From IMG/VR virus record IMGVR_UViG_3300009502_000019: a stretch of 33,514 nt of DNA; one strand, given 5' to 3'. Numbering within the stretch: position 1 is the stretch's first letter; the number at the start of each line of letters is the position of its first letter. Source of the stretch: a virus (lineage: Duplodnaviria > Heunggongvirae > Uroviricota > Caudoviricetes). This document shows positions 6,165 through 16,487 of the stretch, piece by piece. Position numbers and translations under genes: made by a program. Under the pieces are notes generated by a model that saw nothing but the letters and a program-made list of their open reading frames with translations, did no database searches and was not told the DNA's origin.

Positions 6165-6174
6165 ATTTTATTAC

Positions 6175-6247
6175 ATCGGCAAACATCGCCAACTTTCGAT
6201 CTTTGCCGATCTGCTACTGCACAATAACATATCTAATGTTATCGTGC
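6175..6247 (-). other. Tandem stable hairpins in tRNA spacer (possible small RNA or processing signal)
   Basis: 12-bp GCACGATAACAT/ATGTTATTGTGC hairpin, 8-nt linker, 9-bp ATCGGCAAA/TTTGCCGAT hairpin. Confidence 0.4.
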
Positions 6248-6252
6248 GTTAC

Positions 6253-6339
6253 TGGCGGAAGAGGTAGGTGCTGCCCCTACAAGCCTTTTACAGCTCCCGT
6301 TTTCGAGACGGGTGAGCTCTCTAACTGCTCAGCTCTTCC
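6253..6339 (-). tRNA. trnS: tRNA-Ser(CGA)
   Basis: GGAAGAG/CTCTTCC, loop CT-CGA-AA, V-arm, T-loop GGCAGCA, G73-CCA. Confidence 0.9.
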
Positions 6340-6340
6340 T

Positions 6341-6813: not shown

Positions 6814-7490
6814 TTTACTTTAATGCATCCACAATTAAACATCCTACCTCGTATCCATCCTTCTTTCGTATAACCTTGAAGTGCGTCTTCTGTAACAAGT
6901 TTAGATTGGTGTAGTTTTACATTTGAAATCCACTTCTTACCCTTCCAGCTGTTCCGATTTTTTCCGTTAGTACAACCCCCCGATCCTGGAAAAAACTTTC
7001 TACCTCTTATCCAACCATTATTGATATAGTCTGAAAACTCTTCTTTATTAGCCCATCTAGATTGTTTTAATTGTAAGTTAGATATCCACTTGTGCTCTGC
7101 CGTTCGTCCAACTTTTCCAAACATTCCATTCTTTTTACCCGCATGATTTCCATGACTAGCACTTTCTTTCATCTTCTTTCTAGTTTCTTCTGAAGCTTTC
7201 CAACCAGGACAACCGTCTCCGCCATCAGCTAGGTTATATACGTTATCTTTTCCAATGTAATTTCTGCACTCAGCGACATACTTTATTTCTAGCATGTCTA
7301 ATGTAATTTTATCATTAGCATACTCTATTGCTTTTACACGAAAATTATGTTTACCGTACTTTTTGATGGCTTGCTTTAAGTAAGATCCACTACCAAAATA
7401 TTTAGGATTAAACTTACCTTTCTTTTGACCAACATACAGTTTACCATTGACCAAGTTAGTAGTCAGATAAACATATCCGTACATGTTCAT
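6798..7490 (-). CDS. GIY-YIG homing endonuclease
   Basis: Likely start MNMYGYVYLTTNLVNGKLYVGQ (GGAG SD); YFGSG, YNL..GG, SEETRKKM; two C-terminal KWISN...GWIRGR repeats. Confidence 0.88.
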   Translation of the reverse strand: MNMYGYVYLTTNLVNGKLYVGQKKGKFNPKYFGSGSYLKQAIKKYGKHNFRVKAIEYANDKITLDMLEIKYVAECRNYIGKDNVYNLADGGDGCPGWKASEETRKKMKESASHGNHAGKKNGMFGKVGRTAEHKWISNLQLKQSRWANKEEFSDYINNGWIRGRKFFPGSGGCTNGKNRNSWKGKKWISNVKLHQSKLVTEDALQGYTKEGWIRGRMFNCGCIKVKFENG

Positions 7491-7500
7491 AGCACACTCC

Positions 7501-7527
7501 AAAAAAAGAAGGGCACCTTTCGGGTGC
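7501..7527 (-). terminator. Intrinsic terminator-like hairpin in leader of GIY-YIG gene
   Basis: GCACC-CGAAA-GGTGC followed by CCTTCTTTTTTT. Confidence 0.5.
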
Positions 7528-7612
7528 TTGTAGGATATCCGGTTATGGCTATCCAACCCTACGGGTGCCCTAAAAATAGGCATAAAAATACCGAAGTCCT
7601 ACAAGCAACTGC

Positions 7613-7748: not shown

Positions 7749-7821
7749 GGTAGCGCATAACGGTACTGCCCCGATGTCTCCTGGCTGAGAACCAGACGTC
7801 CTTCTTTTAGACGAATGCGCC
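7748..7821 (-). tRNA. trnE: tRNA-Glu(CTC), genomic 3' end CCT
   Basis: GGCGCAT/ATGCGCT, loop TT-CTC-AG, T-loop GGCAGTA. Confidence 0.88.
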
Positions 7822-7828
7822 ATACAAC

Positions 7829-7943
7829 GTGAGCGAGAGGTATTCTATAACTGGCGTGCTGCTGTTACACTAAACGGCCGAGGCCGCTGCGGAGTTGAAC
7901 CGCTCCTCCAGTTCCATGAGTGTTAGGAACCTCTTATGCCCAC
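7829..7943 (-). ncRNA. YrlA-like Y RNA (circularly permuted tRNA mimic)
   Basis: Order T-arm (GCGG-TTCAACT-CCGC), loop-closed acceptor-like stem (AGCGGC-CTCG-GCCGTT), D-arm (GTGT-AACAGCA-GCAC); closed by AACTGG/CCAGTT and terminal helices GTGGGC/GCTCAC, AGAGGT/ACCTCT with a bulged-C segment GGTTCCTA/TAGAATACC. Confidence 0.78.
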
Positions 7944-8017
7944 TGGTAGGGGTAGACGGTACTGACCCGTCGTTTCCTGGGTGAAAACCAGGTGACCTGC
8001 CTTTAGTCGATACCCCC
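7944..8017 (-). tRNA. trnE: tRNA-Glu(TTC)
   Basis: GGGGGTA/TACCCCT, loop TT-TTC-AC, T-loop GTCAGTA, CCA. Confidence 0.9.
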
Positions 8018-8021
8018 GTAT

Positions 8022-8126
8022 AAAAACAAAAAGACCGATCCTGTCTAACCGAGCCCGAGAACCGTTGTTTCTGGTCGCTTCGGGTTTGGTTAGATATTAT
8101 CGGTCTTATAACTACCCGAAGCGACC
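8022..8126 (-). terminator. Attenuator candidate: mutually exclusive terminator / antiterminator
   Basis: Terminator base AAGACCGAT(8107-8099)/ATCGGTCTT(8039-8031) plus TTTGTTTTT; competing 13-bp GGTCGCTTCGGGT(8126-8114)/ACCCGAAGCGACC(8085-8073). Confidence 0.6.
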
Positions 8127-8227
8127 TGTGAGCGTGTGCCCACGAGACAAAAGGATGGCGTCGCCCACAAGGGCATACGCCCTTGCCTGGCCAGCAATCC
8201 TAATATGCGTTCGTGTTTTAGCTTCAC
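8090..8227 (-). CDS. 45-aa putative leader peptide
   Basis: GGAG SD + GTG; MKLKHERILGLLARQGRMPLWATPSFCLVGTRSQVASGSYKTDNI*, ending inside the attenuator hairpins. Confidence 0.5.
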   Translation of the reverse strand: MKLKHERILGLLARQGRMPLWATPSFCLVGTRSQVASGSYKTDNI

Positions 8228-8282
8228 CTGTTGCTCCGTGTAGTGGAAATCTAAATTGTACTCTTTTTAACTTTGAGGCACT

Positions 8283-8311
8283 AGCCTAGCACAAAAAGCC
8301 CTGTGTGTCAA
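8283..8311 (-). promoter_or_regulatory. sigma70-type promoter P1 heading the tRNA array
   Basis: TTGACA-17 bp-TAGGCT; shares upstream AAATAGTTCTTGAC with P2. Confidence 0.75.
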
Positions 8312-8324
8312 GAACTATTTTAAA

Positions 8325-9275
8325 CTATTTTTTGATGCTCCGGATGATATCTAGGAGCTGACCTGTCCGCACGTCATTAGAGTGATGCTTACGTATATGG
8401 GCCATCCCATTAGCTGCAATGCCCCTAGCGAACTCTCTATCAGCTAATATCTTAGCCGCTAAGCTAACAAGATCCGACTGGTCCTTCTTAAACTTTACGC
8501 ACGTGCCATCTGGAAAAATCTCATCAATACCTGAGAACATGTCAGTGAGTAGAACTGCTCCTGATGACATTATCTCAAATGTCTTCGCAGCGGTTATATC
8601 ATAAATCGAGCTGCATGACAAGAACGCGATGTTTTTCTTTAGAACATTTATGTACCCCTCATCCACGATCATCCTGTAGTTAACGATGTAATCATAATTC
8701 GATAACGTCTGAATAGCCCTGTTTCTGTCCGGGTATGCTGTGTTAACAGAGCTGCCAACAAATGCTATTTTGTTAACTCTGTCGATCGATACTGGTGCAA
8801 ACACTTCGGTATCTACGGAGAATGGAAGCCACGCGTTTGGTACTTTTCCTTTGCGAAGGAACTGTGAGTGGTGACGCTGCAGCAGCAGATCAAACCCCTT
8901 CTCCTTATACCAGTCGTCGTTCTTTTCGTAGTGGTAGTCTTCCTCTATCATTATCTTCGGTTCTTTGATCTCTTCGAATCCGCTTGGTATCCAACAGTTC
9001 TTTTGAACACCGGTGTGTGGCGAATAAGACTCAAACATGCGGCTCTTTGTGTTGCATATGACTGCGTCATACGGAAACATGGCTTTTAAGTCGTACATGG
9101 TAATCTTACTGTCGTACGGGATCGTAGCTACGTCAGCGTACCCCTTCTCAAGGTCCATCCCGTATGCAAGCAGCTTTACTCCAGGGTACTTAGCGATGGT
9201 ACGTGCGTACTCCATGTGAAACCACTTGTCGAAGTTGTATTCGGGTATGTACTTATAGAACCAAAGTATGTTCAT
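8325..9275 (-). CDS. Glycosyltransferase, CgeB/Glyco_trans_1_2-like
   Basis: GT-B C-terminal AKTFEIMSSGAVLLTD...IRKHHSNDVR; paralogue of 14776..15756. Confidence 0.75.
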   Translation of the reverse strand: MNILWFYKYIPEYNFDKWFHMEYARTIAKYPGVKLLAYGMDLEKGYADVATIPYDSKITMYDLKAMFPYDAVICNTKSRMFESYSPHTGVQKNCWIPSGFEEIKEPKIMIEEDYHYEKNDDWYKEKGFDLLLQRHHSQFLRKGKVPNAWLPFSVDTEVFAPVSIDRVNKIAFVGSSVNTAYPDRNRAIQTLSNYDYIVNYRMIVDEGYINVLKKNIAFLSCSSIYDITAAKTFEIMSSGAVLLTDMFSGIDEIFPDGTCVKFKKDQSDLVSLAAKILADREFARGIAANGMAHIRKHHSNDVRTGQLLDIIRSIKK

Positions 9276-14133: not shown

Positions 14134-14779
14134 TGGGGTTCTCCGAACGGGGAACAGCAAGCCCCTCTTTTTCGATGTAGCTTTTAGCGTCCTCAGTCCA
14201 CACACCTTTAGTAATGGGGTTCTTCTGCCATATGGATATAAGCGGCTCCTTCATAGAGAAGTTCTTAGCACCTGGGATAGTCCTCGTGTGAGCGTTCTGC
14301 TCAAACTGCCACACGTTCTCATCAGGTCTTACAAAGTTCTTGAAGTAGTCCCTACGCCAAAGAGACGGCTGAAGAGACGCCACGTAGTAAGCCGTGTCTG
14401 GTATTACGTCTAGCATACTCTCTTCTTTAGCAGCTTCCGCAGATACATTTAGCCGTATCTGGTCGGCGAGTCCTTGGCGAACTAAATTAACCAGAACATC
14501 CATAAGGAACACATTGACCGATTTACAGATCCAGTAGTCTTCGACCATCATAAGTAGAATAGGTTCGGGTATCCTGTCGAGAGCCACAAGCATACCGTTT
14601 GACCATCCCGTATCAGGGCCTACCTTTACCGACTCCCCGGCTGGTGCATCCTTAAAATTAGTAACGAAGTATAACTTGCAGGAGCACTCCGGCCAGTACT
14701 TACGAAGTCCGTGCATGAAAACAGGCCACGCCCGCGAATATTTGTCACAGCTTGTCACTACTAAGGCAACGTCGTTCAT
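14120..14779 (-). CDS. Putative GT-A glycosyltransferase
   Basis: LVVTSCDKY..W, LMMVEDY acidic motif; cluster context. Confidence 0.5.
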   Translation of the reverse strand: MNDVALVVTSCDKYSRAWPVFMHGLRKYWPECSCKLYFVTNFKDAPAGESVKVGPDTGWSNGMLVALDRIPEPILLMMVEDYWICKSVNVFLMDVLVNLVRQGLADQIRLNVSAEAAKEESMLDVIPDTAYYVASLQPSLWRRDYFKNFVRPDENVWQFEQNAHTRTIPGAKNFSMKEPLISIWQKNPITKGVWTEDAKSYIEKEGLAVPRSENPNDAI

Positions 14780-15756: not shown

Positions 15757-16487
15757 GTCAGATCTCCATAGTACACAGGGACAGGACCCTGCGGGTTTCC
15801 AACTAAGCCACCGATAAGAGCTAGACGACGCTCCATTTCAGCTTTGTTCCTTAAAAACACACCCATAAGGTGAGTGTTGTTAACAAACAAAGTGTCTTGA
15901 GTGTACTTATGGAACTGGTGAGTTACTGTATATGGCATGTTCTCTTTGTTGTGCTTGTGCCTCTCGCAGATCTCGCGATCCTCACAGCCGTACCCATCAA
16001 ACCCCTCGCACATCCCACCAGACTTGAAGAACTCCGCTTTCTTTATGCAGAATCCTATGCCAAATATGTCCTCTTTGTAATACTCAAGGCGGTCTGCTCC
16101 TCCCTTTTCTGTCTCTCTGAGTACAATGTTAAATGGGACAAACACATAATTTTTTGTGCTATTCATGTACTCAAACACTGTCTTTAGGTAATCTCTGTCC
16201 GTAATGATGTCTGCATCCATGACAAACAGCCACTCGGCTGATGAGTTCCTTGCCGCGACATTAATGAACCAGGATTTGCAGAACAGATCACGGTGTGGGA
16301 GCGTCACCACCTTATCCGCCAACTTTTCAAGGCTTGGGTGGCTGGCGTCCATGTCTCGCACGATTATGAGCTCGAACATGTCTCTTGGAAGTGACTGAGC
16401 TGATATAGATTGCAGCGTGGCGTTAAACAGTCTTAGCCGGTCCTCCTGCTTGCCGTACCAGCAGAATATGAGCGAAAACTTAGGCAT
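15753..16487 (-). CDS. GT2/GT7-like glycosyltransferase
   Basis: FVMDADII (DxD), GGMCEGFDGYGCEDREI. Confidence 0.8.
   Translation of the reverse strand: MPKFSLIFCWYGKQEDRLRLFNATLQSISAQSLPRDMFELIIVRDMDASHPSLEKLADKVVTLPHRDLFCKSWFINVAARNSSAEWLFVMDADIITDRDYLKTVFEYMNSTKNYVFVPFNIVLRETEKGGADRLEYYKEDIFGIGFCIKKAEFFKSGGMCEGFDGYGCEDREICERHKHNKENMPYTVTHQFHKYTQDTLFVNNTHLMGVFLRNKAEMERRLALIGGLVGNPQGPVPVYYGDLT

Follow-up and report, generated by a model that had tools for sequence, protein, structure and literature searches.

The DNA analysed here (the window, 33,514 nucleotides) is part of a 46.8-kb IMG/VR virus record, IMGVR_UViG_3300009502_000019. Because proteins identical to those encoded by the window are present on contigs of up to 202.6 kb, the window was assigned to a large uncultured lake phage. 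The GC content of this phage is 47%. At least 27 typed tRNA genes form an island on the minus strand, and the same strand also encodes a reduced RNase P RNA (rnpB), a CCA-adding enzyme and GIY-YIG endonucleases. Positions 8022-8311, between the last gene of a glycan cluster (8325-9275, Glyco_trans_1_2 match) and the first tRNA gene of the island, are occupied by a short (~290 nt), self-contained element extending from a promoter to the tRNA. We describe this element as a candidate leader-peptide attenuator of tRNA genes. All of its components are on the minus strand, as is the tRNA array.

Promoter P1 (8311-8283) consists of the -35 hexamer TTGACA (8311-8306), a 17-nt spacer and the extended -10 element TG-c-TAGGCT (8291-8283). 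TACAAT at 8260-8255 could serve as the -10 instead, which would leave everything downstream unchanged. Behind P1 the Shine-Dalgarno motif GGAG (8237-8234) is located 6 nt ahead of the GTG start codon of an open reading frame (ORF), which comprises 45 codons and a TAA stop codon (8227-8090, stop at 8092-8090). The translation start expected of a leader attenuator is thus present, and the succession of P1 and a 45-codon ORF, which had been proposed in a sequence-only reading of this DNA, was confirmed. A rough check revealed a similar Shine-Dalgarno motif in about half of the phage's own genes (17/30).

The leader is followed, on the minus strand, by tRNA-Glu(TTC) at 8017-7947, a candidate Y-like RNA at 7943-7829, tRNA-Glu(CTC) at 7821-7751 and tRNA-Asp at 7734-7661. 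There is no space for a promoter between the U-tract that closes the leader and tRNA-Glu(TTC), therefore these four genes depend on read-through from P1 only. A second, near-consensus promoter, P2 (7641-7613, minus strand, TTGACT-17-TATAAT), is located before a GIY-YIG endonuclease gene and feeds this gene, rnpB and the later tRNAs independently of the leader. The sequence-only reading had assumed that the leader gates the tRNAs, rnpB and the Y RNA alike. The assumption would hold for the two tRNA-Glu genes, the Y-like RNA and tRNA-Asp; since P2 also supplies rnpB and the later tRNAs, gating of the whole array is only partly right in this phage.

A 14-nt block, AAATAGTTCTTGAC, is identical around the -35 hexamers of P1 (8317-8304) and P2 (7647-7634). 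The block reaches upstream of the -35 and may represent a phage-specific promoter or UP-element signature. An AT-rich 17-nt palindrome (8308-8335, 82% complementary) extends over the -35 region of P1 and the glycosyltransferase stop codon, and may serve as an operator or as a weak terminator.

Codon content of the leader ORF

The leader ORF has 41 distinct codons among its 45, and codes for all 20 amino acids. With 61 equiprobable codons, the null model that is most favourable to diversity, the chance of finding at least 41 distinct codons is low (exact P = 2.9e-5). In 45-codon windows of the phage's own genes the number of distinct codons was 29.0 +/- 2.6, with a maximum of 38, and 41 was reached by none of the 5,121 open 45-codon windows found when all six frames of the window were considered. 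Read in its two alternative frames, the 135-nt stretch contains 33 and 31 distinct triplets, with three stops each, which indicates that the codon effect is specific to the reading frame and is not a property of the RNA sequence.

The codons were also grouped by wobble (NNY codons joined, NNA and NNG kept apart, 45 groups). The leader ORF covers 38 of the 45 groups; the null expectation was 27.6 +/- 2.2, and 38 was reached in none of 200,000 simulations. Just 20 NNY codons suffice to cover all 16 NNY boxes (P = 3.9e-4), and 13 of the 20 codons missing from the ORF are pyrimidine partners of codons that it does contain. In effect, nearly every tRNA species meets one codon in the leader ORF. Codons for Gly, Ala, Thr, His, Phe and Tyr are included, and tRNAs for these amino acids were not seen in this partial record.

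Enrichment of codons for a sensed amino acid, as expected of a leader attenuator, was not found: there is no run of any codon and codon use is maximally flat. We also looked for comparable small ORFs in other phage tRNA-island loci, and found none among 4,098 (390 kb) and 16,593 (1.4 Mb) small ORFs.

Alternative helices and ribosome position

Two arms of a perfect 13-bp helix (-25.0 kcal/mol) were identified in the leader RNA: region 2, the 5′ arm of the putative antiterminator (8126-8114), corresponds to ORF codons 34-38, whereas region 3, the 3′ arm (8085-8073), uses the same bases that build the two apical stems of a terminator-like hairpin. The sequence-only reading was right in placing one arm of this stem in the 3′ end of the ORF. 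A perfect repeat of 13 bp exceeds what was found in all of 300 dinucleotide shuffles (maximum 10).

The hairpin (8107-8031, 77 nt, -33.6 kcal/mol) has arms at 8107-8080 and 8058-8031, which are 82% complementary over 28 nt and include the basal stem AAGACCGAU/AUCGGUCUU. It is followed by UUUGUUUUU, and is predicted to act as an intrinsic terminator. The U-tract UUUGUUUUUA (8030-8021) starts directly after the hairpin and ends 4 nt ahead of the tRNA; the sequence downstream of the hairpin reads UUUGUUUUUAUAC, then the tRNA begins. Because the antiterminator and terminator helices cross, they are mutually exclusive as nested structures, as had been claimed.

Two features had not been noticed in the sequence-only reading. 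The ORF runs into the terminator: the 5′ arm of the hairpin comprises the last six codons and the stop codon. Furthermore, a third helix is formed by region 1 (8244-8222), which contains the Shine-Dalgarno motif, the start codon and the first two codons. In the minimum free energy (MFE) structure region 1 pairs with 8132-8111 (18 bp with bulges, from the pair list), and the Shine-Dalgarno motif and the start codon are hidden in this helix. Since region 1 pairs with the antiterminator arm and can thereby act as an anti-antiterminator, the leader has the classical 1:2 / 2:3 / 3:4 layout. A central hairpin, H (8201-8152), lies inside the ORF (codons 9-26) and is followed by UUUUGU. This arrangement looks pause-like and makes hairpin H a candidate polymerase pause signal; no tie to nucleotide pools was found. 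The fold of the leader is strong compared with shuffled sequences (z = -6.8; 5′ domain, z = -5.5). A search of 8018-8311 with Rfam 15 gave no T-box, riboswitch or other family match at E up to 10 apart from noise.

The choice between the helices can be seen by folding of nascent lengths alone; equilibrium folding of the complete leader does not reveal a switch. In stepwise folding of the growing transcript hairpin H appeared first, then helix 1:2 at ~8112. When the nascent RNA ended between 8073 and 8059, the antiterminator was the equilibrium fold (P = 1.0). In the full-length leader, helix 1:2 plus the terminator (-94.8 kcal/mol) won over the best antiterminator fold (-82.8 kcal/mol). Thus cotranscriptional folding, the check that had been proposed with the attenuator, yielded in silico an antiterminator that forms earlier than the terminator and excludes it.

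The effect of a translating ribosome was modelled by masking a 30-nt footprint during folding. With the A-site at codons 2-31 the antiterminator was free to form. With the A-site at codons 33-36 the antiterminator was blocked and the terminator was allowed, whereas from codon 37 onwards, stop codon included, the ribosome covered the 5′ arm of the terminator. The antiterminator was lost only with the A-site at codon 33 or later. In this model the position of the ribosome selects the helix.

The leader in related phages

At the DNA level the comparison comprises two members, the window and L079, a locus on a 175-kb IMG/VR contig; a third relative, P0121, was compared as a protein. Other searches with the leader were negative. 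The leader DNA had no blastn match in 50,697 GenBank phages, and no match in the records behind L002-L006. An exact 18-mer of region 2 was not found in viral contigs, and genome contigs gave chance 18-21-mers only. The back-translated leader peptide did not match viral contigs either. At the loci L002-L011 and L025-L064, which were found via the adjacent glycosyltransferase, there are no tRNAs beside the gene, thus the glycosyltransferase-tRNA junction is not conserved. A profile search of 1.84 billion representative proteins returned only P0121 and one spurious match, to a protein of 936 residues. The latter, P0242, matched the leader profile with its residues 731-759 (E = 1.9e-7, 6 stretches), probably as a compositional or repeat artefact.

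P0121 is a predicted protein of 44 residues, which is 80% identical to the leader peptide and is encoded on contigs of up to 215,958 bp. It retains all 20 amino acids, and the changed single-copy residues, F26 and Y40, are swapped reciprocally.

L079 is more distant: its GC content is 32% as compared with 47% in this phage, and the CCA enzymes are 55% identical. Its tRNA island is syntenic and reads leader, Glu(TTC), Asp, RNase P RNA, Ser, Cys, Lys, Lys, Gln, Gln, CCA enzyme, with Asn, Val, Ile, Ile, Arg, Arg and Leu further on. The RNase P RNA begins 8 nt past tRNA-Asp, directly behind the putative attenuator. The leader of L079 lies after two tRNA-like genes, whereas that of the window directly follows a promoter.

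Immediately ahead of tRNA-Glu(TTC), L079 has an ORF of 44 codons (7428-7562) with an ATG start. This ORF, too, encodes all 20 amino acids, covers 16/16 NNY boxes and contains 36 distinct codons in 33 wobble groups. In 988 windows of L079's own genes the distinct codons amounted to 25.3 +/- 2.6 (maximum 33) and the wobble groups to 23.2 +/- 2.3 (maximum 29). Composition-matched P values were 0.0096 for distinct codons and 0.0019 for wobble groups.

The RNA architecture also recurs. The L079 leader has a strong predicted fold (z = -7.2) and a perfect 12-bp antiterminator, in which codons 28-31 pair with 7585-7596; its length is above that found in all of 300 shuffles (maximum 11). The 5′ arm of a terminator with a U7 tract shares 10 nt with the 12-bp helix. 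In the long form of this terminator the 5′ arm consists of the last codons of the ORF, repeating the stop-in-hairpin geometry of the window, whereas a second, short form is clear of the footprint that a ribosome would have at the stop codon. A helix joins the start region and the region-2 zone. The central hairpin has its loop on codon 17 (CGU), as hairpin H does in this phage, and its apical helix is kept, via a one-nucleotide register slip, despite six base differences between the two leaders.

The peptides of L079 and the window are only ~30% identical, and their similarity is marginal (E = 0.045). The residues that they share, LW, C, SGS[YF] and TDNI, coincide with shared RNA motifs (UUCGGGUAG, GAUAAUAU and ACCGAU). 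Both loci have an ORF of 44-45 codons with all 20 amino acids, a perfect antiterminator of at least 12 bp, a position before tRNA-Glu(TTC) and an ORF end inside the terminator. Judging from these sequences, what is conserved across the relatives is the design (ORF length, exhaustive sampling, end in the terminator, long perfect antiterminator, position before tRNA-Glu) and not the peptide. Conservation of peptide and stems upstream of related arrays, suggested earlier as a test of the leader, was thus borne out for the layout in L079; it did not extend to the L079 peptide, nor to the antiterminators, which are not homologous (see below).

We also considered whether pan-codon leaders are universal to phage tRNA arrays. 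This was rejected, as the arrays in L019-L022 and L065-L068 have no such leader upstream, and most CCA-enzyme loci lack one too. L083, a 419-kb phage contig that is unrelated in sequence, has at 16130-16447 a promoter-like site, a GGAGG motif and a 45-codon ORF (16217-16354) in which no amino acid of the 20 is missing. A hairpin of 14 bp (16379-16410) stands ~40 nt ahead of the first tRNA in a 26-tRNA array. The codon diversity of this ORF is not significant (35 distinct codons, P = 0.13); the ORF is a possible independent analogue.

Some further elements of L079 were recorded. The reduced RNase P RNA (112 bits) maps to 7794-8056, and ARAGORN called a tmRNA inside the tRNA island (14266-14658). 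In the segment 6995-7330, upstream of a tRNA-Met and the leader, a promoter that matches the consensus perfectly (TTGACA-16-TGnTATAAT) precedes an ORF of 10 codons, a hairpin resembling a terminator (7118-7137) and, at ~7195-7275, a tRNA-like element that ends with CCACCA and was not called by ARAGORN or Rfam.

Proposed attenuation and competing explanations

On balance we favour ribosome-mediated transcription attenuation as the function of the leader, with an ORF that surveys the decoding system as a whole and not one amino acid. In the mechanism that we infer from the alternative folds RNA polymerase would initiate at P1. Without a ribosome on the start region, region 1 would capture region 2 once this has been made, region 3 and region 4 would form the terminator, and transcription would stop at ~8022, just ahead of tRNA-Glu. 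If a translating ribosome were delayed within approximately codons 2-31, region 2 would be free when region 3 emerges; the 13-bp antiterminator would then form first and the polymerase would continue into the tRNA genes. A ribosome that stalls later, within the last 9-10 codons or at the stop codon, would mask the 5′ arm of the terminator, which would lead to read-through too. The terminator would form only if the ribosome keeps step (A-site near codons 33-36 at the time of decision) or has already been released. With approximately one codon for each tRNA species in the ORF, shortage or damage of almost any tRNA or amino acid would therefore raise read-through.

Known counterparts include the leader-peptide attenuators of the enterobacterial amino-acid operons (trpL, hisL, pheL, thrL, ilvL, leuL). 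The phage leader resembles them in having a short ORF after the promoter and 1:2, 2:3 and 3:4 regions with a U-tract, in the proposed choice of the fold by ribosome position, and in the default to 1:2 plus terminator when the leader is not translated. It differs from them in several respects. The amino-acid-operon attenuators control biosynthetic enzymes, whereas the phage leader precedes tRNAs and other stable RNAs. Their leaders carry a run of codons for one amino acid, whereas the phage ORF has about one codon per tRNA species. In the phage leader region 1 coincides with the Shine-Dalgarno/start region, region 2 and the 5′ arm of the terminator are within the ORF, and the stop codon is within the terminator.

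In the E. coli pyrBI attenuator the 44-codon leader pyrL senses uridine triphosphate (UTP) via polymerase pausing, and there is no strong antiterminator. The phage ORF has a similar length and, like pyrL, extends into the terminator hairpin; in pyrBI a ribosome close behind the polymerase prevents termination, as would be the case here. Unlike pyrBI, the phage leader has a perfect 13-bp antiterminator, and its notable feature is codon diversity. T-boxes are untranslated leaders that bind uncharged tRNA directly and control aminoacyl-tRNA synthetase or amino-acid genes. The phage leader is similar in that a terminator/antiterminator choice would be tied to the state of tRNA, but it contains a proposed translated ORF and has no T-box match. 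The geometry of ribosome-mediated attenuation ascribed to this locus by the sequence-only reading is therefore supported in silico, by the folds as well as by codon sampling and by its recurrence in L079, and is in part pyrBI-like.

Several observations weigh against attenuation as described above. The -10 of P1 is weak: it matches the consensus in just 3/6 positions, for which reason P1 was not listed by the consensus scan. As the terminator always wins at equilibrium, the switch must be kinetic. The antiterminator pairs with the apical stems of the terminator only, and the basal 5′ strands lie in its 28-nt loop; the exclusion is topological, and in the folding model a pseudoknotted 9-bp basal stem may still form. 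Retention of all 20 amino acids by P0121 is weak evidence when taken alone (P = 0.18), and the L079 ORF has no obvious Shine-Dalgarno site. Three apparently compensatory changes between the antiterminators of the window and L079 were rejected, because the helices are offset by ~7 nt relative to the conserved UUCGGGUAG and do not consist of homologous pairs. The antiterminators of the two DNA members being not positionally homologous, there is no true covariation. A match between the leader codons and the phage's own anticodons was also rejected (20/27, compared with 18.1 expected from coverage).

A further objection comes from the stop codon (8092-8090), which is inside the 5′ arm of the terminator (8107-8080). 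In vivo, terminators located near a stop codon are repressed by ribosomes (Li et al. 2015, PMC4824070). A ribosome that finishes translation normally would thus block the terminator until its release, and an 'off' state under good translation is not assured. Termination under unimpeded translation would be a race between release of the ribosome and escape of the polymerase, the level of which is not predictable from sequence.

These facts are accommodated by the main rival explanation, a pyrBI-type sensor of coupling with a response of opposite sign. Here the 5′ arm would be masked, and read-through permitted, only by a ribosome that stays close to the polymerase. Slow decoding would leave the ribosome lagging, the terminator would form and less tRNA would be made, which would amount to a cis-encoded, stringent-like control. 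Such a sensor would explain why the stop codon is within the 5′ arm, where, in the footprint model, a ribosome that has reached codon 37 or beyond abolishes the terminator. The same stop-in-hairpin geometry is repeated by the long terminator form of L079, stop-proximal terminators are repressed by ribosomes in vivo (PMC4824070), and a pan-codon ORF would also be suitable for sensing total transit time. On the other hand, coupling of this type leaves the perfect 12-13-bp antiterminators of both phages without a role. When the ribosome lags upstream of region 2 these antiterminators form with P about 1, predicting read-through on stalling, and the short terminator of L079 would not be covered by a ribosome that has reached the stop codon. 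In view of these points we consider a coupling sensor unlikely.

The chances are lower still that the ORF is incidental and that the leader is an untranslated structured leader or small RNA (a P1 transcript of ~255 nt), a substrate of RNase or processing, or the terminator of the glycan operon. The very strong predicted fold (z = -6.8), the sequestration of the Shine-Dalgarno motif and the start codon in the MFE structure and the lack of a visible Shine-Dalgarno site at the L079 ORF would all be compatible with a non-coding function. Stable RNAs without a known role do occur in phage tRNA clusters, for example the species 1 and 2 RNAs of T4. A non-coding function does not account for the diversity of codons and wobble groups, which is frame-specific, extreme and recurrent in L079, nor for the frame, the length of 44-45 codons and the end inside the terminator, which are kept in three phages; moreover, no Rfam family was matched at E up to 10. 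It is very improbable that the ORF is an ordinary small-protein gene with the 45-residue peptide as its product and the hairpin as its own terminator: the peptide is 80% conserved in the sister phage and is called as a gene there (P0121), but its similarity to the L079 peptide is marginal (E = 0.045) while composition and RNA architecture persist, the conserved SGS[YF] and TDNI fall on conserved RNA arms (UUCGGGUAG, GAUAAUAU/ACCGAU), the peptide has no Pfam match, and there is no promoter space between the hairpin and the tRNA. Both the non-coding and the small-protein explanations are disfavoured by the codon statistics, which are frame-specific and recur in L079.

If the leader is an attenuator that is relieved by stalled ribosomes, it might tentatively be regarded as a general sensor of 'decoding health'. 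Loss, cleavage or non-charging of almost any tRNA would stall the ribosome and switch on the phage tRNAs and the Y-like RNA, in L079 also the RNase P RNA. Possible triggers would include shortage of amino acids or tRNA, attack by host anticodon nucleases and phage-induced decay of host tRNA. The link of read-through to host tRNA cleavage, made by the sequence-only reading, would fall within this range.

A full-text literature search yielded no description of tRNA genes controlled by leader-peptide attenuation, nor of pan-codon leaders. If the proposed mechanism is true, the leader would be the first known case of an attenuator acting on tRNA genes, and the first of a leader selected for codon diversity instead of a codon run. 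The role of phage tRNAs is debated, with matching of codon usage, replacement of degraded host tRNAs and evasion of anticodon nucleases as the competing ideas. A cis-acting sensor of the whole tRNA pool would tie translation stress mechanistically to the supply of phage tRNAs. It would extend textbook leader-peptide attenuation to stable-RNA genes and add a new principle, flat and exhaustive codon sampling. An element this short might also be adapted in synthetic biology as a compact sensor of decoding capacity.

A few observations concern the tRNA island itself. The interval 6165-6340, between tRNA-Ser(GGA) and tRNA-Ser(TGA), has room for two further class II tRNAs missed by the detectors, and a tRNA detected by Rfam at 2785-2856 was given no type by ARAGORN. 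Past position 1 of the window the array continues in L023 (19-2076) with Arg(TCG), Arg(TCT) and five Leu tRNAs (CAG, CAA, TAA, TAG, GAG). The Watson-Crick codons of these five Leu tRNAs are all found in the leader ORF.

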